Below are positions 13,645 through 64,000 of a DNA stretch of 64,000 bases, one piece after another. This DNA is from an uncultured bacterium. Lineage in GTDB: Bacteria > Patescibacteriota > Minisyncoccia > Phycocordibacterales > UBA9973. The notes under the pieces are model-generated. The model ran no database searches and had not been told where the DNA came from. It worked only from the letters and a program-made list of their open reading frames with translations. Where the stretch lies: NCBI GenBank assembly GCA_937903035.1, contig CALCZP010000004.1:181506-245505 (forward strand), written 5' to 3'. Position 1 is the stretch's first letter; each line of letters begins with the position of its first letter. The translations under genes were made by a program, and so were the position numbers.

Positions 13645-13645
13645 A

Positions 13646-15670: not shown

Positions 15671-15696
15671 AAAAAACCGCCCGAAGGCGGTTTTTT
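15671..15696. terminator. Strong bidirectional intrinsic terminator after the surface-protein gene
   Basis: AAAAAACCGCCCGAAGGCGGTTTTTT, a perfect stem with A6/T6 flanks. Confidence 0.7.
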
Positions 15697-15720
15697 GCGT
15701 ACGTATCTAAGTCAGGAGTA

Positions 15721-17613
15721 TTAGTCGAGCTTAGCGTCAGCTGTTTCGTAGTTCTGCGCCGGAGCGAGAGTGTATGAAGCAGGAGTACCTGACTGGTCAG
15801 TGTCATAACGAACTGCACCGAGTTGTACACGGTAGAATCCAGCAGTAGCTGAACCCTTTGTGAGTTCGAGAGTAACATTGAAGGTCTTAGTTTCACCATC
15901 AGCAACCTTGTAGTAGCCACCAACAGTGTCAGCACTTGAAGTAAGTGATGAAGCTGAAGCAGTTACAGAAGTATCGGTAGCACCAGCACTGGTTTCTACA
16001 GAGTAGATGAGACCAGCTGTTGAACCAGATGAAGCTACAGTCTTAGGAATGTAGTAGTCATTACCGAATGCAGTTACTTTGTAAGAAACTGTGTAAGTCT
16101 GCTTACTGAAGGTACCAGAAGTGTTTGAAGTTGCAGAAACACTTGAAGTGAATCCTGAAACCATAACGCCCTCTGAGTAGAATGTCTGAGTTTCACCAGT
16201 TACAGAACCAGTGAGATCACCAACAGAAAGGTTGTCACCATTCTCATCCTCAAAGCCAACAGCATTGCGCTCGTTTGAGCCAAATGTTACTGAAGCTGAG
16301 TCACCTTCGGTGAAGTTAACACCGTCGATTTCTTTGATCTTTGCTACAACCTTGAATGTTTCAACGTCGCCTTCACTGATAGTGAAGTCATCATCGAAGT
16401 CGAAGGTTACAGTACCAGAAGTACTTGAAGGAGCATCCTGACTGTCAATCTCTTCTGAGCCGTTCATAAGAGCGAGCTCATCAAAGATCTGAGTACCGTT
16501 AGCACCAGTAGTGTTTACCTGAACTGGGAGAGAATCAAAAGTAATATCTGATCCTTCTGCCTTGATCTTGAACTCAAGCATAGTAATACCTGAAGTTGCA
16601 CTAGTGTCAGATACTTCTACGTTCTGAGCTTCTGGGTTGTTTGAACCTTCAGTTACCTTAACCTTAACATCACCTGATGCTGAAAGGTCAGTGAAAGTGA
16701 AGTCTTCATCTGGAGCAGAAGTATCAGTCAATACAGCACCACCAGCGTCAGTGAAGCGGATTGTTGAAACTTCAACGTTCCAAGTAGCAGTAAGGTCAGT
16801 ACTATCGATGTTATCAATAGCATCAACTGCAACGTAAAGGTTTGCCTTTTCGTCAGCCTTGATTACAGCACCAGAGAGAGAAACACTCTTTGAGTAGACA
16901 TCTCCATCCTTGTTGAAATCATCAACACTTACTGAACCAACTTTCTTTGAACCGAGCCATACTGACACAGTGTCAACGTAACGGTTCAAGCGAGCTGAAG
17001 AAGAGTTGTTAGCAGTGTTTTCAAATGAAAGCTTCACGTTAGTGAGTGCTACATCTGAACCATTGTCAGCCTCAACCTTTGCACCGAGAACGATGTGGGT
17101 AGAGTCACCTTCTTTAACTTCACTGTCGCCTACACCATTTGAGGTAGAAGTAACAGTAATGTCACCTGCACCACCGGTAAGAGGGCCACTAGTTGAACCA
17201 CCAGAACAAAGAGCACCAGTAGTTGAACTGTACATAGCACCAGCTACGCAGCCAGCAGGAAGATTAGATCCACCTGTTGAACCAGAAGCCTGAAGTGCTA
17301 CAGCCTTAGCAGCTGACATTGGTCCGAAGACGCCGTCAGCAGTGAGACCGTTAGCAACCTGGAAGCGCATAACCGCTGCCTTTGTTGCAGAACCAAATGT
17401 TGATGTTTCCATTCCTGGAGCACCTGCACCTGATGTTGATACCTGAGTACCAGGCCACATGTTAAGGAACTTTTGGAGATCCATAACAGCAGCACCTTTA
17501 GAACCATATTTGAGAGTCGTTGACCAAGTGTAAGTTGCTGCACTTGCAGTTGATGCAAGAGTAACTACACCGAGAACCAACGCTGCTACAAAAAATTTAA
17601 ATTTTGAAGTCAT
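15721..17613 (-). CDS. Secreted surface protein: signal peptide, peptidoglycan-binding (PG_binding_1-like) domain, long Ser/Thr/Gly-rich beta-rich region; putative S-layer/cell-wall glycoprotein
   Basis: 630 aa. MTSKFKFFVAALVLGVVTLASTASA is a signal peptide. GSKGAAVMDLQKFLN...ATKAAVMRFQVANGLTADGVFGPMSAAKA matches the PG-binding repeat. The rest is S/T/G/V-rich. The gene is isolated by strong terminators and has a long upstream untranslated region. Confidence 0.65.
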   Translation of the reverse strand: MTSKFKFFVAALVLGVVTLASTASAATYTWSTTLKYGSKGAAVMDLQKFLNMWPGTQVSTSGAGAPGMETSTFGSATKAAVMRFQVANGLTADGVFGPMSAAKAVALQASGSTGGSNLPAGCVAGAMYSSTTGALCSGGSTSGPLTGGAGDITVTSTSNGVGDSEVKEGDSTHIVLGAKVEADNGSDVALTNVKLSFENTANNSSSARLNRYVDTVSVWLGSKKVGSVSVDDFNKDGDVYSKSVSLSGAVIKADEKANLYVAVDAIDNIDSTDLTATWNVEVSTIRFTDAGGAVLTDTSAPDEDFTFTDLSASGDVKVKVTEGSNNPEAQNVEVSDTSATSGITMLEFKIKAEGSDITFDSLPVQVNTTGANGTQIFDELALMNGSEEIDSQDAPSSTSGTVTFDFDDDFTISEGDVETFKVVAKIKEIDGVNFTEGDSASVTFGSNERNAVGFEDENGDNLSVGDLTGSVTGETQTFYSEGVMVSGFTSSVSATSNTSGTFSKQTYTVSYKVTAFGNDYYIPKTVASSGSTAGLIYSVETSAGATDTSVTASASSLTSSADTVGGYYKVADGETKTFNVTLELTKGSATAGFYRVQLGAVRYDTDQSGTPASYTLAPAQNYETADAKLD

Positions 17614-35448: not shown

Positions 35449-38400
35449 TTAGCTGAGTGTAATAGCTTCTCCACCAATCGCAACACTAGTGGCACCCACG
35501 GTCTTTTTCAGTTCCTCACCAAAACTATCAACGACTGATTGATACTGAAATGGAAGTGTAAGAGTGATGATATCAGATGGTGCAAGACCTTTGTCTTTGC
35601 GCATGTCTTGGACCGTACGTACAAGCTCACGGTACTCACCTTCGAGTTTAAGTTGAAGTGTGATCGTTGTATCAAGCTTTGTTTCTTCACCTGCGATCAC
35701 TGACTTCACATTGAGTTCCTGCATCACAATCGCTGCGTATTGGTCGCTGAGATTCCAGTTTTTGACATACAGTGCCTGGAGTGGCTGACGGACTGCGATA
35801 CCCTCTTTTTTACGAAGTGCATTTCCTTGTGTACAAACCTCGCGCACGGTAGCCATATCTTTCAATAGCTCATCACTCACTGGCATTACTGCTGGCCAAG
35901 TACTCAAGTGCACACTCTCCTCGTTTGATAAGGACTTCAATTTCTGCCAGATATCTTCTGCTGCAAATGGTGCAAATGGTGCCATGAGCTGTGCGACTGT
36001 TTTGAGTACGCGGTAGAGTGTCGCTTTTGCGGCAACATCACCATCCTTGATGCGATCGCGACTCCGACGCACATACCAGGTCGAAAGGTCATCAATAAAG
36101 TCACGAAGTGCTCGTACCGGCTCAAGTAGCTTGTAGGTATCGAGACTTTCAGTCATCAGACTCGTGAGTTGATCGAGCCGAGTTGTAATCCATGCGTCGA
36201 GCACATTATCACCACTTGGATCTACCTCTTCTACGTTTGGATCTCGATAGAGGTCGTAGAATGAGAGCACATTGTAGAGCAATCCGAATACCTGACGTTG
36301 AAGCTCGACGACTGTTTTCTCATCATAGTTCTTGCTATCACCTGGCTGGTTGACTGAGTACATCCAGAGACGGAGTGTATCGACACCGTACTTCTCCATT
36401 TGCTCCCATGGGTTCACGATGTTGCCAATAGACTTACTCATTTTCTTACCTTGTGCATCAAGAAGATGTCCAAGACAAATGACGTTTTTGTATGCCTTGC
36501 CACGCCCAGTGAGCAAGCCAATCGCATGGAGTGTGTAGAACCATCCACGAGTCTGATCGATAGCTTCGGAGATAAAGTCAGCTGGATATGCAATCTCTCC
36601 ATCAAACGGATAATGATCCTGTGCAAACGGCATCGCTCCTGAGTCAAACCACACATCCATCACCTCTTTGGTGCGGCGATATTCCTTGCCATCTTTGACA
36701 AGCACTACATCATCGATGAACGGACGGTGGAGATCAAGCTCAAACTGCGCATTATGTGGAAGTGGTACAAAGTGAAGCGGACGGACTTCGGCATTACTGA
36801 AGTTCACATAGTCGCGCGTTTCTTCAAAGAGACGATCAAAGCTAATCCCTCGCGCTACAAGCTCAAGTGCGCGCGTTGATGCACCATGGGCAACGATCAA
36901 AATATTCTTGCCCTGGTAGCGAGATTCAATATCGTAGAGCGCCTCACCTGCACGCTTGATCACATCGGCATATGATTCACCATCAACAGTCTTGAACCCA
37001 TAGCGATCAGCTGCCTTGTTGCGCATTTCAAAGTATGACTCGATCGGCTTTCCTTCAAATGCACTACCCACATTCCACTCCCCGAGACGAGCATCGGTCA
37101 CGATAGCTTCGGCAGCTAATCCAAGCTTCTCAGCGACAATACGCGCTGTCTCTTGGGTACGAGCAAATGGTGACGCGATGATGAGATCGATCTGTTTGTC
37201 AGCGAGCGCAGTCGCACTTTGAATTGCCTGCTCTTTGCCACGAGTGGTGAGTGGATTTGTGGTTGCAGTATTCACATTCCAGTTCCCTGCAACGTTAAAC
37301 TCTGTCTCGCCATGCCGCATGACAAAGTACTTGTTGTTATTATGCTTGGCATATTTCTTGAGCATATCGATCGAGTCGACAACCATGCGGTCAGTATCTT
37401 CTGAAATCCAAATCGGAAGCGGTGTGCCCCAGTAGCGCTCGCGTGAGATCGCCCAGTCCTTGATACCGTCGAGCCATTCGCCAAAGCGCCCTTCTTTGAT
37501 ATGTGACGGCTCCCAGTTGATGCTTTCATTCTCAGCAACAAGTGTGTCACGAAGTTTCGACATAGCGATATACCATGAGTCACGCGCGTAGTAGATGAGC
37601 GCAGTTTTACAGCGCCAGCAGTGCGGGTATGAGTGTTCGTACTTTTCTTTCTTGAAGAGGAGTCCGCGATGTGCGAGGTCTTTGATGATGTCGACTGCGA
37701 CTTCTTCGTCTTTGACAAATCTTCCTTCAAGAAAATCAGTGCCTGCAATAAACTTTCCTTCGACATTCACCGTGTGGAATTTCGGAAGACCAACCTTGGT
37801 ACCAAGCTCAAAGTCCTCTGCACCATACATTGGTGCAATATGGACGATACCACTACCATCAGTCGTTGTGACAAAGTCAGCAGTATAGACCTTATACGCA
37901 TTGGTAAGTTTTTCTTTTTCTGTACCAGTGATCTGTGCGGCAAGGTATGGATAGAGTGGCTCATACTGCATATCCGCCAAATCTTCTCCAAAATCTCTTC
38001 GCACTTCTTCATAACCATCACCAACCAAATCTTTTTTATCTTCAGCAACAATTAAAATTTCATTCTCTTTTTTGAGCCAAAGATATGTAATATTAGCACC
38101 TACCGCCAGTGCAACATTCCCTGGCAATGTCCATGGTGTTGTTGTCCAAGCAACAATATAAACATTCTCAAAATCCTTAACTTTTGCCTTAAACTTTGCG
38201 TATACTGTCAGATCTTTATCATCCTGATATCCTTGCGCAAGCTCATGGGTCGCAAGTGTTGTTCCGCATCGCGCACACCATGGTGAGACTCGATAGTCCT
38301 TGTAGAGGAGACCCTGATCGTTGACCTTACCGACAATATTCCAGAGACTCTCCATATAGCGAGGATTGAACGTGTAGTACGCCTTGTCCTTGTCGACCCA

Positions 38401-38823
38401 GTAGCCAATACGATCGGTGAAATCTTCCCAGTCTTTAATATAGGTAAAGACGCTGTCCTTACATTCTTTGTTAAATTTTTCGATACCGTAGGCTTCGATG
38501 TCTTTTTTTGAAGCAAGTTCCAATTTCTTTTCGATCTGAAGCTCGACCGGAAGTCCGTGAGTATCCCATCCGGCACGGCGCGGTACATGGAAGCCCTGCA
38601 TGGTCTTGTAGCGAGGGATCACGTCCTTGAATGCACGTGCGAGCAAGTGATGAAGCGCTGGCTTTGCATTTGCTGTTGGCGGTCCTTCAAAAAAGACAAA
38701 CTCACCCTTGGTCGCAGGCTTCTCAAGTGTTTTTTTGAATATGTCATTATCGCGCCAAAAATCGAGCATTCGCTCTTCACGAAGTGCCGACTCGCTTTTC
38801 TGTTGGTTTGTTGATTCATTCAT
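35449..38823 (-). CDS. ileS: Isoleucyl-tRNA synthetase carrying an in-frame histidine-phosphatase (PGAM-like) domain insertion
   Basis: 1124 aa. IleS catalytic core, CP1 editing domain (AWTTTPWTLPGN), KMSKS (KMSKSIGN) and anticodon-binding region are all present. Between ISRERYWGTPLP and DVWFDSG there is an extra ~200 aa with RHGETEFN...LIVAHGASTRAL, the two catalytic-His motifs of the histidine phosphatase superfamily. The HIGH-position reads ALHH. Confidence 0.85.
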   Translation of the reverse strand: MNESTNQQKSESALREERMLDFWRDNDIFKKTLEKPATKGEFVFFEGPPTANAKPALHHLLARAFKDVIPRYKTMQGFHVPRRAGWDTHGLPVELQIEKKLELASKKDIEAYGIEKFNKECKDSVFTYIKDWEDFTDRIGYWVDKDKAYYTFNPRYMESLWNIVGKVNDQGLLYKDYRVSPWCARCGTTLATHELAQGYQDDKDLTVYAKFKAKVKDFENVYIVAWTTTPWTLPGNVALAVGANITYLWLKKENEILIVAEDKKDLVGDGYEEVRRDFGEDLADMQYEPLYPYLAAQITGTEKEKLTNAYKVYTADFVTTTDGSGIVHIAPMYGAEDFELGTKVGLPKFHTVNVEGKFIAGTDFLEGRFVKDEEVAVDIIKDLAHRGLLFKKEKYEHSYPHCWRCKTALIYYARDSWYIAMSKLRDTLVAENESINWEPSHIKEGRFGEWLDGIKDWAISRERYWGTPLPIWISEDTDRMVVDSIDMLKKYAKHNNNKYFVMRHGETEFNVAGNWNVNTATTNPLTTRGKEQAIQSATALADKQIDLIIASPFARTQETARIVAEKLGLAAEAIVTDARLGEWNVGSAFEGKPIESYFEMRNKAADRYGFKTVDGESYADVIKRAGEALYDIESRYQGKNILIVAHGASTRALELVARGISFDRLFEETRDYVNFSNAEVRPLHFVPLPHNAQFELDLHRPFIDDVVLVKDGKEYRRTKEVMDVWFDSGAMPFAQDHYPFDGEIAYPADFISEAIDQTRGWFYTLHAIGLLTGRGKAYKNVICLGHLLDAQGKKMSKSIGNIVNPWEQMEKYGVDTLRLWMYSVNQPGDSKNYDEKTVVELQRQVFGLLYNVLSFYDLYRDPNVEEVDPSGDNVLDAWITTRLDQLTSLMTESLDTYKLLEPVRALRDFIDDLSTWYVRRSRDRIKDGDVAAKATLYRVLKTVAQLMAPFAPFAAEDIWQKLKSLSNEESVHLSTWPAVMPVSDELLKDMATVREVCTQGNALRKKEGIAVRQPLQALYVKNWNLSDQYAAIVMQELNVKSVIAGEETKLDTTITLQLKLEGEYRELVRTVQDMRKDKGLAPSDIITLTLPFQYQSVVDSFGEELKKTVGATSVAIGGEAITLS

Positions 38824-51862: not shown

Positions 51863-52660
51863 TTAACGAATTTCGTAGACTACACTTACGGTAGTTTGTA
51901 CGTTCTGCACACCAACAGGAATACTTGGTGCAGCACTTCCCGCTACAGCGTCACGAGACATTTCAAGTTTTGCTGCATACGGCATTGGATAGCCACTACC
52001 TTGTTCACTAAATGACACGATACGTACAAGGTGCACACCGAGCGCTTTTGCGAGCTTCTGTGCTTCATCTTTTGCATCATCGATGGCTGCGTTACGAGCT
52101 TCACGAGCAACAGCCTTATCATCTTCAAATCCAAATGATGGACCACTCATGTCGGTTACACCGTTTGTTCCGAGGATACCAAGGACAGTCTCAACCTTGT
52201 CGAGATCTTTGATTGCAAGTGAAATGTTTTGTGACACTTCATAGCCACGAAGACTTGGATTTGACTGTGGGCATGGTGCACGGAAGCACTGTATCTGAGG
52301 ATAGTCGTACTGTGGGTATGATGTATAAGATTCAGTCTTGATGTATTTTTCTTCAAGCCCTGCATCCATCAATGCTTTTTTGATAGCATCGACTTTAGTA
52401 CTCACCGTACTCTGTGCAGTCTTGAGATCCTTTTGTTCGTTGCGAATAGAGAATGAGATCTTTGCTGTGTCAGGAGCTTTTTCTACCTTACCCTGTCCAG
52501 TCACCGTGATGGTATTCGTCGCGGAAAGACCACTTCCAATAAAGCGATGTTCCTTAAACGCATTGAGTGTAAGACCAAGGAACAAGAGTCCAAGCAAAAT
52601 GCCAAGACCAACGATAACTCTAATAATGATTGTTTGATATTTTTCGATAAATGGGTGCAT
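51863..52660 (-). CDS. SIMPL/DUF541-domain secreted protein (YggE-like)
   Basis: 265 aa with an N-terminal TM/signal segment. It has a SIMPL-like repeat pattern, e.g. KISFSIRNEQKDLKTAQSTVSTKVDAIKKAL. Confidence 0.6.
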   Translation of the reverse strand: MHPFIEKYQTIIIRVIVGLGILLGLLFLGLTLNAFKEHRFIGSGLSATNTITVTGQGKVEKAPDTAKISFSIRNEQKDLKTAQSTVSTKVDAIKKALMDAGLEEKYIKTESYTSYPQYDYPQIQCFRAPCPQSNPSLRGYEVSQNISLAIKDLDKVETVLGILGTNGVTDMSGPSFGFEDDKAVAREARNAAIDDAKDEAQKLAKALGVHLVRIVSFSEQGSGYPMPYAAKLEMSRDAVAGSAAPSIPVGVQNVQTTVSVVYEIR

Positions 52661-52681
52661 CTGCCTAGTATACCAGACTAC

Positions 52682-53365
52682 CTAGGCTTTTTTGTTGAGT
52701 TCGTCACCTATAAGTCTCCCATCAGCTAATGTAATAATCCGGTGACACATTGCTGCGTAGTCAGGCTCGTGGGTTACCATCACAATCGTCTGTCCATGCT
52801 TGTTGAGCTCAAGAAAGGCTTCAAGTACCGTGTGTGATGTCTCAGAGTCAAGGTTGGCGGTCGGCTCGTCAGCAAAGACAATCTTGGGGTCATGACCGAT
52901 CGCACGCGCAATGGAAACACGTTGTTGTTGTCCCCCAGAGAGCTGACTCGGAAGGTTGTGCATGCGATCAGAAAGTCCGACACGTGAGAGTGCATAGGCA
53001 GCTTTTTCGGAAGCTTTTTTCTCATCAAGACCCTGCATAAGGAGTGGCACCATAACATTTTCAAGTGCAGTAAGTGTCGGCAGGATTGCATAGTCCTGGA
53101 AAATATACCCAAGCGAGTTGAGACGAAGTCTCGTACGATCATGCTCAGAGAGGTTCACACTTTCAATACCGTCGATATAGACCTTCCCCCCAGTCGGCAT
53201 ATCAAGGAGTCCAAGCTGGTACAGGAGCGTACTTTTACCTGAACCACTACGACCAGTGATCGCCACAAACTGTCCTTCGGGAATATCAAATGAGACATCC
53301 TCCACTGCATGGATTTCAGCGTCTCCTGTTTTAAATGTTTTAAATAGATGTTCAACTTTAATCAT
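52682..53365 (-). CDS. ABC transporter ATP-binding protein (MacB/LolD/FtsE type)
   Basis: 227 aa with GRSGSGKSTLL, LSGGQQQRVSIARA and Walker B FADEPTANLD. Confidence 0.9.
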   Translation of the reverse strand: MIKVEHLFKTFKTGDAEIHAVEDVSFDIPEGQFVAITGRSGSGKSTLLYQLGLLDMPTGGKVYIDGIESVNLSEHDRTRLRLNSLGYIFQDYAILPTLTALENVMVPLLMQGLDEKKASEKAAYALSRVGLSDRMHNLPSQLSGGQQQRVSIARAIGHDPKIVFADEPTANLDSETSHTVLEAFLELNKHGQTIVMVTHEPDYAAMCHRIITLADGRLIGDELNKKA

Positions 53366-53390
53366 AAAAGTATTACTTCAAAAAAATATA

Positions 53391-54668
53391 TTATCTACCT
53401 AAAATAGCACTAAGCGTATTTTGTCTAATAACGATACGCGCCGGAATATATCCTGCGACAATCGTCGCGACGAGCAAGATCGCAGTGCGGATCAACGTAC
53501 CCGATACTGTCGCAACAAGGATACCATCAGAGAATGGAAAGTCGATCGGATGTGCAACAAAGAGCGGTTTCAAAAAGAGAAAGACAACCGCAATACCGAC
53601 CCCTGATCCTGCAAGTGCATAAAAAATAGACTGGAGTATGTATGAGACCGTGATTGCACGAGGTGTAATACCAATACCTTTCAAAATACCGATGAAGCGA
53701 CGGCGTGTGATGGCGTTCACAAAAATCACAATAAAGATTGTGATGGCAGCAACCACAAGACCGATTGATGAAATACCATTTCCAAGGATTGCAAACGTTG
53801 CTTGAATATCTTTGAGAAATTTTGGCATCGCTTCGTCATGCGTTTGCACACGTGCATGTTCACCCACCCCACTTGCAATAAGTGATGCCTTGGCAACAAT
53901 AGGATCAACCCCTGGGAGTAATCTGACAGCAATCTGGTTGGCATCGTAGTCACTACGTCCGATGAGTTTGCGGGCTTCACTATCGAGCATGATGACCGAC
54001 TGATCAAAGGTATCCACCTTGCTCGAAATGATGCCTTTCAAATAATATTCTTTGGTAATATCTCCCACTGTGAGCCTGATGCGTGAGCCTACGGTCACAT
54101 CTTTGAGTGTTTGAAATCCTGGCGCTTCGATCGGGGTGTATTTGTAGATTAAGTTCTTGCCAAGTACGATCTGGTCGCTATCTCCTGGTTCGATAAATGA
54201 ACCTTCCACCATGAACTTTGCAATATCAGAAAACGCTGCTTCGGTATCAGGATTGATACCGAGGATTGAGCCGCCTGCACCATCACGAATCTCACCTGGC
54301 TTGATCGTCGTACGGTAGTTGCTCTCAATACGAGCACTCCCTGTATACCGCACAGCGAGTCGTGAAAAGCCTGGCAATGTTTTAATGGTTGCTACCACGT
54401 CTGGTGTCTGCTCGATGTAAGGCTTATTGAGAAATGGTGAAATCAGGATATCACCGGATGAGTATTGCTTGTCCGCACTGACCGATCCTTCGATGAGACC
54501 CACCAAAATACCGGAGACCACTACGAGGTTCAAGAACGTGAGGAGCATCACAAAGATAATGAGTGATGTCGTCCAGAGACTTGCACGCTTGAGCTCACGC
54601 TTCGCAAGAAATGCCCCGACCCGGAAGTCGATCATGAGTGTCTGCCAGAATGTTCGGTGTGCTCCCAT
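53391..54668 (-). CDS. ABC transporter permease, MacB/FtsX type (1 TM, large extracytoplasmic domain, 3 TM)
   Basis: 425 aa with FtsX-like topology. The C-terminal segment reads LKGIGITPRAITVSYILQSIFYALAGSGVG. Confidence 0.8.
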   Translation of the reverse strand: MGAHRTFWQTLMIDFRVGAFLAKRELKRASLWTTSLIIFVMLLTFLNLVVVSGILVGLIEGSVSADKQYSSGDILISPFLNKPYIEQTPDVVATIKTLPGFSRLAVRYTGSARIESNYRTTIKPGEIRDGAGGSILGINPDTEAAFSDIAKFMVEGSFIEPGDSDQIVLGKNLIYKYTPIEAPGFQTLKDVTVGSRIRLTVGDITKEYYLKGIISSKVDTFDQSVIMLDSEARKLIGRSDYDANQIAVRLLPGVDPIVAKASLIASGVGEHARVQTHDEAMPKFLKDIQATFAILGNGISSIGLVVAAITIFIVIFVNAITRRRFIGILKGIGITPRAITVSYILQSIFYALAGSGVGIAVVFLFLKPLFVAHPIDFPFSDGILVATVSGTLIRTAILLVATIVAGYIPARIVIRQNTLSAILGR

Positions 54669-54680
54669 TACGTGGATTAA

Positions 54681-56120
54681 TTATTTTGTACTCCAGACTA
54701 CCTGGTCACCATCAGTGAGACCGCTTTTGATTTCAACCACATCACCGTCTCCACGAAGACCAACTTCCACCGTACGAGTCTCCGTTTTCTTGTGACGAGC
54801 ATCAACGAGCACATCCACGGTATAGGCACCCTCTGGTGTATGCGTGAGTGCGCGACCAGGAATGGTCAGTACTTGGGTGAGGTGCGCCGCACTGATCGTC
54901 ATATTCGCTGTCATGCCAGGACGGATGTTTTCACTGTCACGAAGGAGTGCTTTGATCTTGTAGTTGACAATACTGTCCACAATAGTAGCTGAGGGATCGA
55001 TCGATGAGATCGCCGCCTGGTACGGCTTGTTGCTGCCAAATGCATCAAACGTCACTGCCACTGGCTGCTCAAGTGAAAGCAATGCAACCGATGTTTCATT
55101 AATGTTTGCTTCGAGATAGAGGTTGGATACATCCTGAAGAACAATGACTGGCTTGAGTGCATCAGGCACTTCACCTACTTTCACATCCACCCGAGTGATC
55201 GTACCGTCTGCAGGTGCACGAAGAATAGTCTTCTCAAGCGACGCATTTGCCGCATCAACTTGTGCCTGTGCGCTCACGATATCTGCAAGCGCTGCATCAA
55301 TCTCTGGCTGACGTGCCGTTGCACGAGTGAGTGCGAGCGCTGCTTCCTTTTCTTCGACGAGTGCTTTATTGGCAGTGTAGTTTGGACCACTTTTGTTTGG
55401 GATCAAAACCTTCCAGCTTGCATCAGCATCATTTGTTTTTGATGGAAATGCAATGCGGAGTCCTTTGGCACCAAGCGGTTGTGGCAAGACATCCACATCA
55501 GCGGTTCCCTTTTCAAGACCAGTAAAGCGGACATCAGTTTTCGTAAACGTATCAAATGAAATACGATATTCCCCTTCAACATCACCCGTATACGTACCAG
55601 TGATCACCGGAGCCTGCGCTGTATCACTCGCATCCTGCGGATCAGCGATGAGATCATCGCTGTAGAGTTTGCGAAGCGCATTTTGGAGCTGCACCTTTGC
55701 AAGTGCGACTTCTTCGTTTGAATTACCCTGGAGTACCTTATCATAGCGTGCTTGTGCCGCAAGAAGTCCGCCGCGCGCACTCTGATACGTTGCACGCTCA
55801 CTCGCATTCTTTTGCGTTGCGATGATGTCACCTTTTTTAACCTTGGTGCCAACCACAACACGAAGACTATCCACCATTTTGGTTGATTCAAATGAGAGTG
55901 AGAGGTCGGTCGAACTTACGACCACTCCACTTGCTGCAACCGTGCGATCAAGATCCTGACGCTTTGCTGTCTCAGTCACAAAGTCAGCATCAGCCTTGCC
56001 ACCACCGAGGAGCACGATGAGTGCAATACCAATGAGCGCAATGATGAGTACTTTGACGCGAAGGCGACGAGCGCTCCACCATACCTTGAATCTGTTCCAG
56101 AATTCTTTGACCTTTTGCAT
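54681..56120 (-). CDS. Membrane-fusion/periplasmic adaptor protein (HlyD/MacA-like)
   Basis: N-terminal TM, then biotinyl/lipoyl-like and coiled-coil regions and a beta-barrel domain. The start is set to the ATG at 56120, since the ORF-track start is TTG. Confidence 0.7.
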   Translation of the reverse strand: MQKVKEFWNRFKVWWSARRLRVKVLIIALIGIALIVLLGGGKADADFVTETAKRQDLDRTVAASGVVVSSTDLSLSFESTKMVDSLRVVVGTKVKKGDIIATQKNASERATYQSARGGLLAAQARYDKVLQGNSNEEVALAKVQLQNALRKLYSDDLIADPQDASDTAQAPVITGTYTGDVEGEYRISFDTFTKTDVRFTGLEKGTADVDVLPQPLGAKGLRIAFPSKTNDADASWKVLIPNKSGPNYTANKALVEEKEAALALTRATARQPEIDAALADIVSAQAQVDAANASLEKTILRAPADGTITRVDVKVGEVPDALKPVIVLQDVSNLYLEANINETSVALLSLEQPVAVTFDAFGSNKPYQAAISSIDPSATIVDSIVNYKIKALLRDSENIRPGMTANMTISAAHLTQVLTIPGRALTHTPEGAYTVDVLVDARHKKTETRTVEVGLRGDGDVVEIKSGLTDGDQVVWSTK

Positions 56121-56121
56121 A

Positions 56122-56664
56122 TTATTTAATACCCACAAGCTCTACTTCAAAGACAAGTGTTGCATTCGGAGGAATCACCCCGCCCGCACCAGCTGCTCCA
56201 TAGCCGAGCTCTGGTGGAATAGTGAGCATGCGAACTTCGCCAACTTTCATACCGAGCACACCTTCGTCCCATCCTTTGATCACCTGACCTGCGCCAAGTT
56301 TGAATGAGAAGGTACTGCCGCGAGGCTTGCTCGCATCAAATGTTGTGCCATCGGTAAGCTTGCCGACATAGTGGACTTCTGCGGTCTGTCCGTTGGTAAT
56401 GGCTGGGCCAGTGCCCTCTTTGGTGGTTTGAATAGTCATTTTTTTAGGATTAGATTGATTGGTAGTAGTTGGTGATTGTGGCTGCTGTTGTTGCTGCGTG
56501 CCTTCGATCGATGTTGGTTTTGACTCAGTAGATTCAGTAATCGATGGCGGCGGTGTCGTGGTATCTGATACCTGCACATCCTTTGGTGCTCCACCTAGCC
56601 ACCATATCAGAAGACCGATGCCTCCTGCAAGAATGATTCCTATAATGTATTTTTTCATATCCAT
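56122..56664 (-). CDS. Membrane-anchored FKBP-type peptidyl-prolyl cis-trans isomerase
   Basis: 180 aa with an N-terminal TM and a Thr/Pro/Gln-rich linker. The C-terminal FKBP domain reads VHYVGKLTDGTTFDAS...GWDEGVLGMKVGEVRMLTIPPELGYG. Confidence 0.9.
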   Translation of the reverse strand: MDMKKYIIGIILAGGIGLLIWWLGGAPKDVQVSDTTTPPPSITESTESKPTSIEGTQQQQQPQSPTTTNQSNPKKMTIQTTKEGTGPAITNGQTAEVHYVGKLTDGTTFDASKPRGSTFSFKLGAGQVIKGWDEGVLGMKVGEVRMLTIPPELGYGAAGAGGVIPPNATLVFEVELVGIK

Positions 56665-56736: not shown

Positions 56737-58518
56737 TTAATTTGCAATGAACCGATACCCTGTACGAGGTGACCATGGAAGAGGTGTCGGTGATTGTATC
56801 CAGACAATACCATCAGTTGATGTCCAAATCTTATTGCCGAATGATCCGACATTTCGACTATCACCCACTACCATGGTTCCCTGTACTACCACCGCGTCCA
56901 TTTCTTGAAAGAGACCAATAGACGACGGGAATGTTGTACTCAGTAATGTCCATGAACTTCCGTTTGTTGAAGTATAAATTGAACGAGAAGATCCTCCTGA
57001 TACACCGCTCCATGCAACACCGCCCATGAAATACATTTTGTTGTTGTAGTTGAGGATTTTTGCATCGCTTGTGGTTCCAAGGATAGATGTGTCCGCAACT
57101 TTTGACCATGATATGCCGTTGATACTTTTCCATATATCTGACTGCGCATAGCTACATGGCAGACCTGATGTCGTACTATACCCCATTGGCACCGTGCACC
57201 CTGAAGGTAATACGCCCTGCACGCCACCAATCACATAGAGCGATCCATTAAATACTCCAAGTGTCGGATTTTCTCGCGCGAAAAACGGGAGTTGCACAGT
57301 CGTCCAATTGATACCATCAGTTGTTGACCATGCCTTTGCATATTCGATACCTCCCATATAATTTGAACGACCTCCAATAACGTAGATTTTGTTATTAAAC
57401 ACGATCGATTTATATCGATAATAATCAGCAAATGGTACTGTTGATGCAACCTGACTCCACGTCGTACCGTTAGATGAGTTCCATATATCAGTAAGACGCG
57501 GCACAAACGGCGTACCACCACCGAATACCCAGTATTTATTATTAAAAGAAAGTGCTTCGAAACTTCGACGGCCCGACCACATTGATGAAGCAGCAGTATT
57601 TGTAGACATTAATGACCACTGCTGAAGATTAGACGAAGAAAAAATGTCATTAAATGATGCATAAGGTGTTACGTCATTCCCACCCCCAAGAAATACTAGT
57701 GTACTAGAAGTAACAGATGGTGGGATAATTGCTGGACCAATAGTAAAGGTATTCCCTACAGGAGCAACACTTCCTATACCAGCCCACGTATACTGACCGG
57801 GAAAATCATAGTAGGTGTCTATTTGTACATTAATTTGAGCACCAACAAATGCAGTAGTTCGTATATCACCGTAGATTGCAAATTTCTTTGTCTCACCTGC
57901 AGTAAACGACAACATGAGTGGGATAAATTTATTTTCAAACGAAGATCCGATGAGTGGATCTACGATCGTTGTTCCGATCTGTACATTATCAGCACGAAGA
58001 AGCAGATTGGTAACCGTTGAAGAAACGACCGGACTTTGCGGTATGGTGATAGATATTCCATAGAGCGTGAGCGGATTATTAGCAGTGAAATCAAATTCCG
58101 CCAATTTCACGTTTGTAGTTCCCGCAGGAACTGTCTGAGCAGGAGGATTATCGATAGAAATAGTGGTTGTCAGGGTCGGAAGCGGATCATCCAAACATTT
58201 TTTGATCTTACTTATCCCCTTTTGTCGACACAATGGTGTTGCAACAATCTCGGGAGCTACTTCAAGTTGTGGCAACACTTGTCGTGGTGGTTTGATACCA
58301 CCTGTTTGAAAGGTAGGAATTTCAACGGTATCAATATCTTTTATATCGCGAGAAGGACGAATAGTCTCCCCTTTCGTAGGTACAACAGTCTCGATTTCAG
58401 CTATTTCTGATAGAGCAGAAAGGCTCTCAAGTGAGCGTCCAAACAGACGACTATTGTCGTTTTGTACTGGTACAAATACTCCAATACAAATCATTACTAC
58501 GGCGATATATCTATTCAT
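56737..58518 (-). CDS. Secreted Kelch-repeat beta-propeller protein
   Basis: 593 aa with a signal/TM N-terminus. The C-terminal half has repeated Kelch-type blades: NNKYWVFGGG, NNKIYVIGG, NGSLYVIGG and NNKMYFMGG. Confidence 0.65.
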   Translation of the reverse strand: MNRYIAVVMICIGVFVPVQNDNSRLFGRSLESLSALSEIAEIETVVPTKGETIRPSRDIKDIDTVEIPTFQTGGIKPPRQVLPQLEVAPEIVATPLCRQKGISKIKKCLDDPLPTLTTTISIDNPPAQTVPAGTTNVKLAEFDFTANNPLTLYGISITIPQSPVVSSTVTNLLLRADNVQIGTTIVDPLIGSSFENKFIPLMLSFTAGETKKFAIYGDIRTTAFVGAQINVQIDTYYDFPGQYTWAGIGSVAPVGNTFTIGPAIIPPSVTSSTLVFLGGGNDVTPYASFNDIFSSSNLQQWSLMSTNTAASSMWSGRRSFEALSFNNKYWVFGGGTPFVPRLTDIWNSSNGTTWSQVASTVPFADYYRYKSIVFNNKIYVIGGRSNYMGGIEYAKAWSTTDGINWTTVQLPFFARENPTLGVFNGSLYVIGGVQGVLPSGCTVPMGYSTTSGLPCSYAQSDIWKSINGISWSKVADTSILGTTSDAKILNYNNKMYFMGGVAWSGVSGGSSRSIYTSTNGSSWTLLSTTFPSSIGLFQEMDAVVVQGTMVVGDSRNVGSFGNKIWTSTDGIVWIQSPTPLPWSPRTGYRFIAN

Positions 58519-58559
58519 ATATGATGAATATTGTACATATTATATGAATAATGTCAATA

Positions 58560-61500
58560 TTACTCCCCTTCACTTGGTGCAGGAGCAGATGCTTCGCCGC
58601 TTCCTTCATCAGCCGGAGCACTTTCACCACCTTCATCCACAGGAGGTGTTTCTTCACTTGGAGATGTCACCTCACCCCCTCCGTCATCTGCAGGTGGTGG
58701 TGTCTGTTCATCACCTGATCCATCATTACTACTTCCTCCACTTGCTCCCCCTGCATTTGCTGCACCATTTTGAAGGAGCTGCTGGAGCTGATCTTTGCTG
58801 ACACAGACCTGATCTTCATCAGTACCGACACAGAGCTCTTCAGTCGTGACTTTCTTGGTCTTTACACTGTCCACGAGTGCTTCGCCACGCTCTGCAATAC
58901 CCTGGAGGAAGGTCGCGACTTTCTCGGCAAAGGTCTGATCTTCAAATACTGGCAATGCCTGTACCTTTATATCCATCTCTTGAATAGCTTTAATCGTATA
59001 AGGGATAAATCCGCCATAACCAACTGACTTGAATCCAGTAAGTGGATCAGTCTTTACAAGCTCAGGAAAGAGCTGTTCCACTTCCTGTGCAATGAAGCCT
59101 CCATGCGCTGGATCACTATCATCCTCTTTATTCCAGTTGTAGGTTACAGCACGAAGCTGAAGAATACGACCAAGAATACCATCTTCAACGCTTACAATAT
59201 TTTTCTTAAGCCGCTCATCAGAACTACAACTAAGAACTGCATTATCTACATCAATATCACAATGACCGTTTTGGTTTTCAAATCGAGCAACAACACCATC
59301 AGTAAGACTTCCATCACCAACATCCAATGTAAAATTGGCACCCGTATTCATAATACCCAATTTAAAGCCTGACTGATAGTTAGGATCACCGATAAATGAC
59401 GAGTTACCTGCAGGGTTAGAATCGAATCTCATAAACGGATCCCCTCCTGAAGCACCTGCTATATTAAGCTCACTATTCGTTGCATTAATACCATAGGTGA
59501 ACGCATCACTTCCAAGATGGTCATAGAAATAAAATCCGTTATCTGACGTACCACCTCCAATATTAAGGATTCGCTGGTTGGTTGAAGGATTTCTAAAATC
59601 TATCTCTGCGGTTGAAGGGTTTGCCTCTACATAGAAAAATGCAGTGTTGCTTCCTGATTCCTTAAGTCTAAGGAAACTACTTGATGAAGAAGTGTTAGCA
59701 ACAAAGAAGTCAGTATTTATAGGACTTCTTATATTAAATGCAGAACCAGTCGAATACGCCTCCATTAACATCGATTGATATCCTGTTATTGGATTAGTGA
59801 GACTCATTATGGCCTGCCCGGAATCCCCTTCCAGATGGAAGAATTCATTACCAGTTATTTCAGTTGCAGTAATGATAGTATCACTACCAGTTCCATACAT
59901 TTTGAAAAGTTCATTACCCTGTCTTTGGAAAGAAATTGATGCAGTCGTTGAATTTCCATATCCGGTGAAATATGTATCACCATTTTGATCAGACACATTA
60001 AAAGATGATCCTGTTGTTGAGGCAGATATACCAAATGCCTGATTTCCATTCGATGGTTCGGAAATAGTAAATGAACTAAAATTTGTACCACCAACAGCAT
60101 TCAAGAAGTTGTTACCATCACGATTGGAAGCCGAGATATAGTTGGTAGTCGTATTTCCTGATGCACTAAACATGTCATTTCCTTGGTATCCACTAAGACT
60201 CATGCCCCAGTATGTTGAAGCACCATAGAGATTGAACAAACCGTCACCTGTTGCACTATTGGAAACACTTATCCCGCCATTTACAGAAAGTTGGTTACTA
60301 CCATTATTCCAGACAAAGTTTGAACTCGCGCCGAATGCACCAGAGTTGTTGAACTGAATCTGGGTATTTGATCCTGCAGGAGTTCCGCCACCACTGCCAA
60401 TGTTTGTCCATGAGCCAGCACTGTTCTTGTACTGCATGGTGCCACTATTGTCGCGGATACCGTATCCAGATGAACCAAGTGTGCCAGTGAAGTTCAAATA
60501 GCTATTAGAAGGGTTGAGTGCAAGACCATTTCCAGTGAATTGAGCATATTCAGTAGCAGCATCACCAAACGAGACCTTCCCAGCATTTGGATATTGTTTG
60601 ATCCATGAACGAAGCGTTGAAGGTGTGAGGAATGACGCATCAACCGAAACACCACGAACATAACTTGTACTTTGCCAGTCAGTACCAGTGCTTTCGCGAA
60701 CAAGAAAGTCATTGATCATGAAGCTATTGGTCTGACCATTACCAGTAACACGGTTGAGTGTTTTGTAATTTCCAGTAGTTCCTCCTAGGTTGCCATAGAC
60801 AGTATTTTGAACAGTTCCACTCACATATACTGGCTCATTTACGTTCAAGCCAGCACCGTTGCTTGTAAACTGACCTCCGGCAAACACATACTGTCCATCA
60901 CCATAATCATACGATGCGATAGAAGTACCATTATAGTCTTCATACAGACCAGTCTCATCACAGGTACCAACGCATCCATTACCGATAAATGCACGACCAC
61001 TACCACCACTACCCATGATAATACTGTCTGAGTAAATGGCCGAACTTGCATGAACGTTTCCATTCACATCAAGGTTATAGCCAGGCGCTGGTGTGCCAAT
61101 ACCAACCCTTCCATTAGTATCAATTCCCATTCGAAAAGTATTACCGGTACCAAACTGAAGACCTTTACTTCCAGTTGTAGTAATATATGCAGTTTCCCCA
61201 TTCATACCTCCTGAAATAAGTGCAGATGCGTATGCGGAACCACCGTATCCAATTTCCAAAGCACGACTCGAACTATTTTGATCATTATAGATCCGGAGGC
61301 TTCCATAACTTGATGATGTAGGAGCTCGCAAAATAATACTATTAGCATCACCAACAATTTCAAGTTTTGCACCTGGTGCTTTTGTACCAATACCGATACT
61401 ACCTGAACTTATGGTTGTTCCCGTACCGTCAAGACCCGTACCATAAATCAAGTTTCCAATACTAAGCTGATTTGATCCCGTTGCTGAAGCAACATATGCA

Positions 61501-64000
61501 GCCTGACCAATAGCGATATTCCCCGAACCTGAAGTGAGATTGTTTAATGTTGCAGGACCAATCGCAACATTGTTTGAACCTGTTGAAAGCGAAGTGAGTG
61601 TATTGTATCCAATACCAAGGTTGTAATTACCAGAAGTAAGCGATGGGACTGCGGCATCACCCACACCAACGTTACCAGTACCAGTACCTAATGATTGCAA
61701 TGCAGCAGCACCAACTGCAACGTTCCACTGTGCTGTAGTACTTGTTGAAAGCGCCGCATTACCCACCGCAACGTTGTCTGATCCGGTTAAATTTGATTGA
61801 AGCGCAAACACACCAATGGCAGTATTTGTCGCACCATCAGTATTTGAGATGAGTGCATTGTAGCCGAGTGCTGTATTTCCTTCAGATCCACCACTTACAT
61901 TAGTTTGTTGAGAGCCGATAATGAAGATGTCGTTAGAACCTGAATATGCAATTGCGTAGTCTTGGATATTAGTGAGTCCTCCACCATTACCATAATATGT
62001 ACCAACTGCATGTATATCTCCATTAACATCAAGAGTATATGACGGCATAGTACCAATACCGACCTTACCTGCAGTTGGCTGAAGGATGAGATTTTCCCAT
62101 GCAACACTTTGGTTTACTGCTTCAATGAAGCCAAAGTTGCTGGTCGTATTATATCCAATGTTGAGTTTATGGCTTGTACTACCTGTACCACGTATCGACA
62201 TTTGAGAAGCACTTCCGCTCGTATTATTAACCAGATTTCCTGCTATCTCAAATGTTCGTGTTGGACCAGTGGTACCAATACCAATACCTGAACCGTTGTC
62301 ATATATAAGACTATTACCAATCGCTGAACCACTTGTGAACTTTGGAATATAATTTGTTGTACCTAAAACACTTGCTGAAGTAAGGACAGGATTACCACCT
62401 ACATACAGATCACCGAAGTATCCAATGTTTGCATTAACTTCATTCCAGCGATACGTTGTAGTACCAAGACTGCCTCCAAAATCATTTGTCGGAACGATGT
62501 TACCGTTTGCTTGCAAGACACCTTCAAAGTTATCACTCGTACTGCTAAGGAGCACGTTTCCTGTATTACCTTTGATATGGAGACGATCCACAAAGCCACC
62601 GATATCAGGCTGCATCACATTGATTGCAAAGTCACCAAAGCGGCCATATTGATCGTAGTTTGGATCTTGAATCGTACCGTCAAGGCGCACGACCTCAATA
62701 TCATTGTTATCAATATCAGCACTCTTAAAGAGAATCGATGCACCAGAGTTGTCACTGTTTGAACTGTTGTCATCACTGCGACGTGTAAGGGTGAGCATTG
62801 TGGTTGGATCACTATAGTTACTATTCACCTGATCAGCCATTAATGACTTGGTTCTGAGGTTACCATTCATATCAAGCTCAAGGAGATTTGCCGGTGCAGA
62901 CCATCCACCAATACGAAATACGTTGTCATAATCAAGCCCCATATTGATTGCAAATGCGCCCCCTCGATGGAATGACATAAACGCTGGTCCTGTGTCATTT
63001 GAATATGCTTGCAACGATGGTGTATCACTTGCATTGAGACTGACAACACCTTTATTACTGTAAAAATGAGTAGCACCATTCACATCTCCACCACTAAGCG
63101 GCAAGTATGAACCGAGTGATGAAGCGGTTGCGAAGTATGACGTGTCATGACCATCAAGCAGATCAGCATCAAGCAAACTTCCTGACCCATCATTACCCTG
63201 TGTCCAAATATTGCTACCGTTTGCAGTAACTGATGTTCCGTACAAATCAAGGTTTGTAATCGTAAATCCTGAACGAGTGACGTTCATAAAGCTATTTGCA
63301 TTACTATATGCATCATTAATAGCACGGAATTGTAATGTCTTGCCGGTTGCATTTTGCTCGATATCCCATCGCTTCTCATTGGTTCCACCACTTGATGCAT
63401 TGGTACTCAAAAGTCTGATTACATTTGCACCATTTTCGACAATACCACCGTAGTCGCTAACATTAACATTCACACTTGATCCAAAGGTAGTTATACCTGA
63501 GGTATCAATCGTTACCCGCGCAACACCACCAGTAACAAGAGAAAGTGGGCTTGCATTTTGTGTTCCTATAATACCTAAATATCCAACGGTTGGGTTGAGA
63601 TAGAGTCGTGCAGTATTCGATGCACCAAGAGCATTAATCGTCACAACAGGCTCGACATCAGTAAATGTTGCATAGGTTGCACTGAGTGATCCACTAAACA
63701 CACCATCTCCTGATCCACCATAGAGTGCTATCTTTTGTGTTCCAGATGCATTATTAACCTGGACGACCCCCTCATTACTCGCATTTGCATACACATTGTA
63801 AATAATATTGCCTGCTGATTGGTTGAGAATATACTGACCAGTTCCATTTGTTGCAGCAACTGTTCTAATTGAACCACTTGAAACTATTGCTCCATTGTTA
63901 TCAACATACAATTTATCAGTACCACTTTTTGCAAGTTGTAATAGATTACCTGAACCAGTTGTGGTCGCGTATATAACTGGTGTGTTGTTTGAAGTAGATA
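58560..64000 (-). CDS. Giant (>1800 aa, 5' end outside the window) surface-fibre / phage-tail-fibre-like protein with a C-terminal Peptidase_S74 intramolecular-chaperone autoprotease domain and an acidic Pro-rich tail
   Basis: The ORF stays open to the window edge. It has repeated (V/I)GIGT..P....L(D/E)V.G motifs typical of tail-fibre/beta-helix repeats. The C-terminus reads LSCSSDERLKKNIVSVEDGILGRILQLRAVTYNWN...GGFIAQEV, matching the SDxRLKxNI...YNW signature of the endosialidase/tail-spike chaperone domain. Confidence 0.7.
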   Translation of the reverse strand, partial: STSNNTPVIYATTTGSGNLLQLAKSGTDKLYVDNNGAIVSSGSIRTVAATNGTGQYILNQSAGNIIYNVYANASNEGVVQVNNASGTQKIALYGGSGDGVFSGSLSATYATFTDVEPVVTINALGASNTARLYLNPTVGYLGIIGTQNASPLSLVTGGVARVTIDTSGITTFGSSVNVNVSDYGGIVENGANVIRLLSTNASSGGTNEKRWDIEQNATGKTLQFRAINDAYSNANSFMNVTRSGFTITNLDLYGTSVTANGSNIWTQGNDGSGSLLDADLLDGHDTSYFATASSLGSYLPLSGGDVNGATHFYSNKGVVSLNASDTPSLQAYSNDTGPAFMSFHRGGAFAINMGLDYDNVFRIGGWSAPANLLELDMNGNLRTKSLMADQVNSNYSDPTTMLTLTRRSDDNSSNSDNSGASILFKSADIDNNDIEVVRLDGTIQDPNYDQYGRFGDFAINVMQPDIGGFVDRLHIKGNTGNVLLSSTSDNFEGVLQANGNIVPTNDFGGSLGTTTYRWNEVNANIGYFGDLYVGGNPVLTSASVLGTTNYIPKFTSGSAIGNSLIYDNGSGIGIGTTGPTRTFEIAGNLVNNTSGSASQMSIRGTGSTSHKLNIGYNTTSNFGFIEAVNQSVAWENLILQPTAGKVGIGTMPSYTLDVNGDIHAVGTYYGNGGGLTNIQDYAIAYSGSNDIFIIGSQQTNVSGGSEGNTALGYNALISNTDGATNTAIGVFALQSNLTGSDNVAVGNAALSTSTTAQWNVAVGAAALQSLGTGTGNVGVGDAAVPSLTSGNYNLGIGYNTLTSLSTGSNNVAIGPATLNNLTSGSGNIAIGQAAYVASATGSNQLSIGNLIYGTGLDGTGTTISSGSIGIGTKAPGAKLEIVGDANSIILRAPTSSSYGSLRIYNDQNSSSRALEIGYGGSAYASALISGGMNGETAYITTTGSKGLQFGTGNTFRMGIDTNGRVGIGTPAPGYNLDVNGNVHASSAIYSDSIIMGSGGSGRAFIGNGCVGTCDETGLYEDYNGTSIASYDYGDGQYVFAGGQFTSNGAGLNVNEPVYVSGTVQNTVYGNLGGTTGNYKTLNRVTGNGQTNSFMINDFLVRESTGTDWQSTSYVRGVSVDASFLTPSTLRSWIKQYPNAGKVSFGDAATEYAQFTGNGLALNPSNSYLNFTGTLGSSGYGIRDNSGTMQYKNSAGSWTNIGSGGGTPAGSNTQIQFNNSGAFGASSNFVWNNGSNQLSVNGGISVSNSATGDGLFNLYGASTYWGMSLSGYQGNDMFSASGNTTTNYISASNRDGNNFLNAVGGTNFSSFTISEPSNGNQAFGISASTTGSSFNVSDQNGDTYFTGYGNSTTASISFQRQGNELFKMYGTGSDTIITATEITGNEFFHLEGDSGQAIMSLTNPITGYQSMLMEAYSTGSAFNIRSPINTDFFVANTSSSSSFLRLKESGSNTAFFYVEANPSTAEIDFRNPSTNQRILNIGGGTSDNGFYFYDHLGSDAFTYGINATNSELNIAGASGGDPFMRFDSNPAGNSSFIGDPNYQSGFKLGIMNTGANFTLDVGDGSLTDGVVARFENQNGHCDIDVDNAVLSCSSDERLKKNIVSVEDGILGRILQLRAVTYNWNKEDDSDPAHGGFIAQEVEQLFPELVKTDPLTGFKSVGYGGFIPYTIKAIQEMDIKVQALPVFEDQTFAEKVATFLQGIAERGEALVDSVKTKKVTTEELCVGTDEDQVCVSKDQLQQLLQNGAANAGGASGGSSNDGSGDEQTPPPADDGGGEVTSPSEETPPVDEGGESAPADEGSGEASAPAPSEGE

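Follow-up and report, generated by a model that had tools for sequence, protein, structure and literature searches.

A giant S74-type fibre protein with an allele-variable tip in a Patescibacteria genome, probably a cell-encoded recognition fibre

The giant fibre gene and its variable cassette

We analyzed a stretch of 64,000 nucleotides (the window; contig CALCZP010000004.1, forward-strand positions 181,506 to 245,505, GenBank assembly GCA_937903035.1) from an uncultured Patescibacteria bacterium, which ends in part of a giant gene for a fibre-like protein. The gene lies on the minus strand, in a frame without a stop over 1,812 codons (58560-63998, by translation) that closes with TAA at 58560-58562; the two other minus-strand frames of the same stretch contain 57 and 205 stops. 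This agrees with a preliminary description of the window, which had reported an open minus-strand frame of more than 5.4 kb up to the edge. The frame runs on beyond the edge, and the N-terminal part of the protein lies outside. One part of an ENA contig, ERZ650244 NODE_1 (405,211 nt), matches the window exactly, and the gene called there encodes 3,457 amino acids (aa); counted from an upstream in-frame ATG, it has 3,469 codons. Our locus on NODE_1, L001, holds the C-terminal 3,318 residues of the protein. Residue numbers (e.g., Ser1593) count from the window part.

G accounts for 14.4%, S for 11.0%, T for 10.7%, and N for 9.6% of the 3,318 aa, together 46%. Peptidase_S74, close to the C terminus, was the sole family matched in a Pfam scan of these residues, and scans of the whole protein against NCBIfam, PHROGs, and PDB gave no match outside the S74 end. 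The C-terminal features are as follows.

58560..63998, minus strand: giant fibre gene, C-terminal 1,812 codons plus stop (translation; gene call)
60279..60521, minus strand: conserved junction module, SYLNFTGTLGSSGYGIRDNSGTMQYKNSAGSWTNIG...GSNTQIQFNNSGAFGASSNF, residues 1160-1240, with ~80 homologues for that stretch alone
59223..60266, minus strand: distal tip, beta-rich, residues 1245-1592, no assigned fold
59052..59222, minus strand: Peptidase_S74 (intramolecular-chaperone) core, residues 1593-1649
58770..59051, minus strand: post-S74 helices (as modeled by AlphaFold2 [AF2]) and Cys pair (Cys1723, Cys1732), residues 1650-1743
58563..58769, minus strand: low-complexity G/E/S/A/D/P tail of 69 residues, residues 1744-1812, identical in both alleles
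58770..60366, minus strand: allele-variable cassette, residues ~1211-1743, comprising the distal tip, the S74 core, and the first post-S74 helix, replaced en bloc

The cassette emerged from a comparison of alleles across samples, in which L001 and L003 represent one allele and L002 (also L245) and L244 represent the other. The two alleles are 100% identical over L001 nt 1-8152, upstream of the cassette, and, from about nt 9760 onward, identical again over 5 kb that take in the Kelch-like, FKBP, and membrane-fusion genes. Every difference between them is confined to ~1.6 kb (window 58770-60366), which blastn was unable to align. Between the alleles, the tips are 27% identical and the S74 cores 60% identical. 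The left boundary of the cassette falls inside the conserved junction module, where the first changes are mostly synonymous, and the right boundary falls in the helix that follows the S74 core. The window was found to contain no silent copy of the other allele's cassette.

The replacement of tip and chaperone as one block amid identical flanks is as expected of a recognition surface under diversifying selection. A tip that differs wholly between otherwise identical strains is also a good candidate for the part that chooses the attachment target. The same pattern argues against a passive role, in which the protein would coat the surface or act as a spacer without any specific binding partner, for instance as an S-layer-like fringe, as a decoy for phages, or as a defense against grazing. 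The low-complexity, G/S/T/N-rich composition would suit such a coat, as would the large parts of the protein without conserved homologues. We nevertheless consider it unlikely, since the exact replacement of tip plus chaperone points to selection on a recognition surface and the closest characterized relatives bind prey cell-wall ligands (PMC10769870). The adhesin role put forward in the preliminary description is plausible, with its best indirect support in this allele-specific cassette; it is the binding itself that we infer.

The S74 core matched Pfam PF13884 over the full model (positions 1-58) with an E value of 6e-16 and 58.9 bits (cutoff, 22). AF2 modeled the domain with a predicted local distance difference test (pLDDT) score of 92-98, and a Foldseek search with the model returned the MyRF ICA domain (7dc3; E=1.8e-4, probability 1.0), 3gud, and 3gw6. 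Both alleles carry the Ser-Lys dyad motif SDxxxK, which reads CS/SDERLKK in the window and CS/SDMRLKK in the sister allele (the slash marks the putative cut). The window sequence aligns with SSDRRIKK of the T5 fibre pb1 (6f45), and self-cleavage is predicted, by analogy, before Ser1593 in CS/SDERLK.

The predicted postcleavage fragment is 220 aa long, compared with a median of 98 aa in 54 S74 matches. Among these matches, a long fragment with both a Cys pair and a low-complexity tail was seen mainly in proteins that have a signal peptide. The final 95 residues contain 17% G, 14% E, 12% S, 11% A, 9% D, and 9% P. The intramolecular-chaperone domain and the acidic, Pro-rich tail of the preliminary description are thus both present, the former as the PF13884 match and the latter as the acidic, G/E/S/P-containing stretch of 69 residues.

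Homologues of the tip were recognizable only at its N-terminal end, where it overlaps the junction module, and over its last ~48 residues; for residues ~1340-1545, no homologue was found. A tip with no assigned fold leaves room for a cryptic active site, and the first S74 domains to be described came from endosialidases and other tailspikes (Pfam name; PMC10769870). On these grounds, the protein might be mainly a spike with enzyme activity, which would act like a tailspike depolymerase on the capsule or cell wall of a host, with adhesion secondary. We regard this as improbable: the 3,318 aa contain no glycosidase, lyase, or esterase family at an E value of <=1 and no PDB sequence match outside the named modules, and a stalk of 3,200 residues is typical of fibres and not of compact spikes.

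Stalk, knob, and N-terminal region

Upstream of the junction module, the window part consists of stalk modules and an internal knob. Several resemble the mosaic adhesive trimer (MAT) fibres of Bdellovibrio bacteriovorus.

62814..63266, minus strand: internal knob with LDADLLDG motif, residues 245-395, covered by ~45 homologues
62208..62822, minus strand: duplicated module, second copy, residues 393-597, 82% identity over the first 120 aa
62238..62285, minus strand: capping-loop motif 1, IGIGTTGPTRTFEIAG, residues 572-587, fits the MAT consensus
62019..62063, minus strand: capping-loop motif 2, VGIGTMPSYTLDVNG, residues 646-660, fits the MAT consensus
61452..61904, minus strand: 17-residue repeats of the NTAIG/NVAVG type, residues 699-849, predicted beta-solenoid
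61350..61397, minus strand: capping-loop motif 3, IGIGTKAPGAKLEIVG, residues 868-883 (motif count and profile match)
61059..61106, minus strand: capping-loop motif 4, VGIGTPAPGYNLDVNG, residues 965-980 (motif count)

In the window part, we counted four occurrences of the motif [VIL]G[IV]G[TI] (residues 572, 646, 868, and 965), against 0.11 expected from 2,000 shuffles (maximum, 2). Its extended form with P and L/F (the VGIGTxxPxxxL type) also occurs four times and was absent from the shuffles. The G/S/T/N-rich protein with recurring VGIGT-type motifs of the preliminary description is therefore confirmed by count. Its "beta-repeat units" fared less evenly: the motifs are real and a solenoid of 17-residue repeats is predicted, but the protein as a whole is a mosaic of differing modules with a few internal duplications and has no single repeated unit.

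AF2 modeled the 17-residue repeats as a regular solenoid with one strand per 17 residues (pLDDT, 84-96). By tblastn, they are 35 to 52% identical to tail fibres of cyanophages, pelagiphages, and roseophages. A profile built from the repeats and the VGIGT loops (A1) matched crystal structures of Bdellovibrio fibres, namely 8ond (Bd2133; E=1.6e-7) and 8ojn (E=2.9e-5), and the alignments to both pass through the capping loops. The best Foldseek matches of the repeat model were left-handed beta-helices, none of them significant. We set this fold assignment aside because a monomeric solenoid may misrepresent an intertwined trimer.

The knob profile (A3) matched PDB 9b45, the tail fibre gp47 of Pseudomonas phage Pa193, with an E value of 2.5e-21, and gp47 holds three tandem copies of the domain. 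With the phage fibres that resemble the repeats and the Bdellovibrio structures, this match bears out the tail-fibre and beta-helix similarity expected from the preliminary description. In most relatives, the knob is the last domain ahead of the S74 site. The giant protein continues after its knob with "...NSNYSDPTTMLTLTRR" at the point where relatives have "...AYSDxRLK" (the S74 site), and what follows NSNYSDPTTMLTLTRR is a module duplicated 800 residues upstream (first copy, L001 residues 1081-1312, upstream of the window). The presence of NSNYSDPTTMLTLTRR in place of an S74 site, together with the duplicated module, looks like an end-to-end fusion of once-separate fibres.

Genomes of Patescibacteria, Chitinophagaceae, and Bdellovibrionota contain N-proximal stalk modules such as "ATTSTNGYLSATDWNTFNNK", as do many IMG/VR contigs. 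Two stalk modules, DWNTFNNK and GNAGKFLTTDG, recur in Bdellovibrionota proteins.

The N terminus was read in the sister allele. An exhaustive HMMER search of representative proteins yielded P0233, a protein of 3,439 aa whose sequence agrees perfectly with that of the window protein for 2,716 residues; its first 139 residues joined to the L001 part give the recorded length of 3,457 aa exactly. The contigs that encode P0233, L244 and L245, extend 4.1 kb upstream and show, in order, a partial membrane protein, a 1,085-aa fibre protein, and the giant gene. Neither upstream protein had a Pfam match above the threshold or a PHROG family match.

L244:802-4059, plus strand: 1,085-aa fibre protein with a MAT-type N-domain, without S74, and with a C-terminal Cys-rich beta domain

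An in-frame ATG for the giant gene lies 3 nt past the TAA of the upstream gene and 12 codons ahead of the called start. Translated from this ATG, the giant protein begins with MKNSITFNRIVAMLAVASTVSIFSWQAASA, which has a charged n-region, a 14-residue hydrophobic core, and an A-S-A c-region and reads by eye as a Sec-type signal peptide; the preliminary description had suggested extending the contig in search of one. The 1,085-aa protein also starts with a signal peptide, followed by a domain (INYHSRLRDSNGDPV...PRVKFNPAPYALNA) that is N-terminal in 20 giant relatives as well. A profile of this domain matched the N-domains of three Bdellovibrionota proteins with an hhalign probability of 98.2% (E=5.6e-14). 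The similarity emerged by profile comparison only, as BLASTP of a relative's N-domain against one Bdellovibrio protein was not significant. In 11 relatives, the MAT-type N-domain and the S74 domain stand together on one chain. The giant fibre is probably made together with the 1,085-aa protein, and the gene arrangement suggests that an anchor domain and an S74 fibre can be split across two translationally coupled genes.

Genomic setting and proposed mechanism

The called genes in the first 58.5 kb of the window are all housekeeping genes. They include those for 23S rRNA, tRNA synthetases, ribosomal proteins, RecA, FtsK, ThyX, SecE-NusG-L11, and glycosyltransferases, together with a polysaccharide cluster. 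We detected no PHROG or Pfam phage family in these 58.5 kb downstream of the giant gene, in line with the preliminary description, which had seen no phage structural genes nearby. The window also contained no fibre paralogue and no tRNA gene. Its NusG falls in a cluster of at least 90% identity with a member that NCBI assigns to a "Patescibacteria group bacterium." The following features lie next to the giant gene.

58530..58557, minus strand: promoter-like site TTGACA-16-TACAAT (11/12 positions), in the 41-nt gap before the next gene
56737..58518, minus strand: protein of 593 aa, hydrophobic segment at the N terminus and Kelch-like propeller, downstream neighbor of the giant gene
51863-56664, minus strand: FKBP isomerase, HlyD-type membrane-fusion protein, FtsX permease, and ABC ATPase (MacAB-like exporter) and SIMPL protein, directly downstream

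Promoter-like sites are no commoner in the region than in shuffles. The 593-aa Kelch-like protein is identical in both alleles, and the low-coverage contig L244 has a split form of it (342 plus 260 aa). None of the Kelch-like, FKBP, and MacAB-like transporter genes was found beside fibre relatives. They are also identical in both alleles, and we see no sign that they belong to the fibre system.

Farther along the window, an isoleucyl-tRNA-synthetase-like protein of 1,124 aa (35449-38823, minus strand) has a histidine-phosphatase domain (PF00300) inserted between its tRNA-synt_1 segments. A bacterial 23S rRNA gene, represented by its 5' 721 positions (1-749, minus strand), is cut by the window edge. 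The polysaccharide cluster (~5000-17600) comprises Bac_transf, an ABC2 exporter, Wzy_C, and several glycosyltransferases, one of them a 913-aa multidomain protein, and is adjoined by a 630-aa PG_binding_1 protein.

Relatives of the giant protein are numerous (41,504 among representative proteins at an E value of <=1e-3) and occur in genomes of Patescibacteria, Bacteroidota, and Bdellovibrionota; scans of genome contigs and metagenome contigs yielded distant relatives only. One relative with a long C-terminal tail, P0014, has housekeeping genes on both sides. Another, P0006 on L243, is an S74 protein of 1,812 aa with a signal peptide and adjoins two TraG/TrwB-type coupling-protein genes. Phage records share three modules with the protein: S74 is found in 312 of them, the 17-residue repeats in 90, and the LDADLLDG motif that opens the knob module in 2. 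The remaining ~80% of the protein had no match in 50,697 phage records, and no IMG/VR sequence was closely related to the window part. Many IMG/VR contigs carry the DWNTFNNK stalk module. On one of these, of 63 kb, a 2,793-aa open reading frame with this module (L217:7736-16117, plus strand) adjoins genes for an endolysin, a tail fibre, and GroEL-like and GroES-like proteins. Giant fibres of similar build are thus also found on phage-like contigs. The idea of a "domesticated phage fibre" in the preliminary description goes beyond what these data show: only three modules are common to sequenced phages, relatives are very numerous, also in bacterial genomes, and the direction of transfer cannot be read.

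We consider it probable that the giant protein is an exported, self-processing, trimeric recognition fibre that is encoded by the cell and has an exchangeable tip. A cell-encoded, nonprophage origin is supported by the housekeeping genes downstream, the absence of phage families from the 4.1 kb upstream, the putative signal peptide, and the housekeeping-flanked relative. It agrees with the preliminary description, which had placed the fibre in the cell and not in a prophage and had advised a search for phage genes beyond the window; none was found in the 4.1 kb upstream in the sister strain. We consider it very improbable that the protein serves a prophage, or a phage-tail-like particle (tailocin), integrated into the genome as its tail fibre: S74, the 17-residue repeats, and LDADLLDG are common to phage fibres, the knob profile matches Pa193 gp47, DWNTFNNK abounds in IMG/VR (as in the 2,793-aa frame beside an endolysin and a tail-fibre gene), and the upstream view ends at 4.1 kb, but both the giant and the upstream fibre protein carry putative signal peptides, whereas virion fibres assemble in the cytoplasm, neither the 4.1 kb upstream nor the 58.5 kb downstream has a PHROG or Pfam phage match, IMG/VR is without a close relative of the window part, and P0014 is flanked by housekeeping genes on both sides.

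As a cell-encoded recognition fibre, the protein may work as follows; export, trimerization, chaperone action, self-cleavage, surface location, and adhesion are all put forward by analogy with related families. The N-terminal signal peptide would direct export by Sec. Three chains would assemble into a mosaic stalk, in which beta-helical segments with capping loops are combined with an internal knob and a solenoid of 17-residue repeats, and the S74 domain would act as an intramolecular chaperone for folding of the trimer. S74 would then cut itself off before Ser1593 through the Ser-Lys dyad (SDERLK), freeing the 220-residue fragment and exposing the distal tip, which could bind a target on another cell or surface. 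Exchange of tip and chaperone as one cassette would alter specificity. The upstream 1,085-aa fibre protein, carrying the MAT-type, cell-proximal N-domain, would be produced alongside.

Several points weigh against this reading. The N terminus and the upstream DNA were read on the sister-allele contigs L244 and L245 and not on the window's own contig, and the upstream view is limited to 4.1 kb. The signal peptide of the giant protein was judged by eye and depends on an ATG that lies 12 codons upstream of the annotated start. Residues 19-110 of the giant protein had no homologue in the fetched set, and the conserved MAT N-terminal domain is missing from the chain. AF2 gave the tip, as a monomer, a pLDDT of 40-55, and all AF2 models are monomeric. 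Neither Pfam (E<=1) nor PDB sequence scans detected an adhesin or lectin domain in the giant protein.

By rough scaling from the Bdellovibrio fibre Bd3182 (922 aa, ~550 Å; PMC10769870), a mature chain of ~3,200 residues could reach ~0.2 micrometre. A more speculative picture, which we hold to be doubtful, is a two-part, ~0.2-micrometre host-recognition fibre of an epibiotic bacterium of the candidate phyla radiation. The 1,085-aa protein would be its cell-proximal MAT-type anchor, and the giant protein would dock to it distally, as the T4 distal half-fibre does to the proximal one. The cassette would be the host-range determinant that differs between coexisting strains.

Relation to known fibre systems

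The published work that we located on how Patescibacteria find and hold their hosts centers on type IV pili and unnamed "adhesins," and in our literature search we came across none that connects S74 or MAT-type fibres with Patescibacteria. The locus offers a concrete candidate for host attachment, a giant, putatively exported fibre with relatives among the fibres by which Bdellovibrio recognizes prey. Two otherwise identical strains that differ only in the tip-plus-chaperone cassette amount to a natural experiment, through which host specificity becomes testable. Relatives are very common in metagenomes, yet this locus makes host recognition by Patescibacteria directly testable.

In trimeric autotransporter adhesins, too, the YadA-like heads of the surface fibre are beta-solenoids made up of short repeats of the NxAxG type. 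The giant protein differs from them in its repeat period, which is 17 and not 14, and in its C terminus, which is S74 plus a tail with no membrane-anchor barrel. We rejected an identity as a trimeric autotransporter adhesin, as there was no Hep_Hag or YadA Pfam match at an E value of <=1 and the C terminus is of the S74 kind.

The best structural match of the C-terminal domain, the MyRF ICA domain (7dc3), comes from a eukaryotic membrane-bound transcription factor, and only the module that trimerizes and then cleaves is held in common. The same capping-loop motif has also been reported upstream of the MyRF ICA domain (PMC10769870). The L-shaped tail fibre pb1 of T5 (6f45/4uw8) and the K1F endosialidase (3gw6) resemble the giant protein in having the S74 Ser-Lys dyad directly after a receptor-binding tip. 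In contrast, both belong to virions, lack signal peptides, and are encoded within structural modules of phages, and their similarity to the giant protein is confined to the last ~170 residues before the tail. Pa193 gp47 (PDB 9b45) has three tandem copies of the knob domain (FHRxGxxAxxxGLDxDNxxxxGGWS). This protein, a baseplate fibre of a myovirus, has 962 aa and no reported S74 domain (PMC11456595), and its solved model covers the first ~350 residues only, with the knob lying outside (9b45; PMC11456595).

The closest comparison is with the MAT fibres, which the preliminary description had not named and of which B. bacteriovorus HD100 has 21 (Caulton et al. 2024, PMC10769870). All 21 have a signal peptide and a conserved, beta-rich N-terminal domain of ~130 aa; their stalks are beta-helical, with capping loops of the form V-G-G/N-pi-x-x-P-x-x-x-L, and their tips are variable (PMC10769870). 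Thirteen end in S74 with SDxxxK, and self-cleavage has been demonstrated for Bd3182 (PMC10769870). Members are located on the predator surface and bind prey cell-wall ligands, and "tip swapping" has been suggested for these fibres (PMC10769870). The published table of MATs from other organisms has no Patescibacteria entry (PMC10769870), and with the present locus the MAT building plan would reach a group outside those so far listed.

The giant protein resembles the S74 subgroup of MATs (the Bd3182 type) in being cell encoded, and its sister allele has a putative signal peptide, as read by eye. It has capping loops of the form VG(G/N)xxxPxxxL and stalk profile matches to 8ond and 8ojn. Its variable tip is followed by S74 with SDxxxK, tip exchange is seen between the alleles, and its mosaic stalk modules are shared with Bdellovibrionota proteins. 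It differs in length, at ~3.5 times that of the ~1,000-aa MATs, and in its host, a Patescibacteria bacterium. It also has an internal knob and a postcleavage fragment of 220 aa with a Cys pair and an acidic tail (median, ~98 aa in S74 matches), and the conserved N-terminal domain is on the adjacent upstream gene and not on the giant chain. We did not file the protein as a MAT member because this domain, one of the defining features, was looked for on the chain and not found there. The giant fibre is most likely a variant of the MAT/S74 fibre kind that works in the same way. The novel points are the bacterial group that carries the fibre, its size, the apparent distribution of anchor domain and S74 fibre over two coupled genes, and a natural exchange of tip plus chaperone between alleles.

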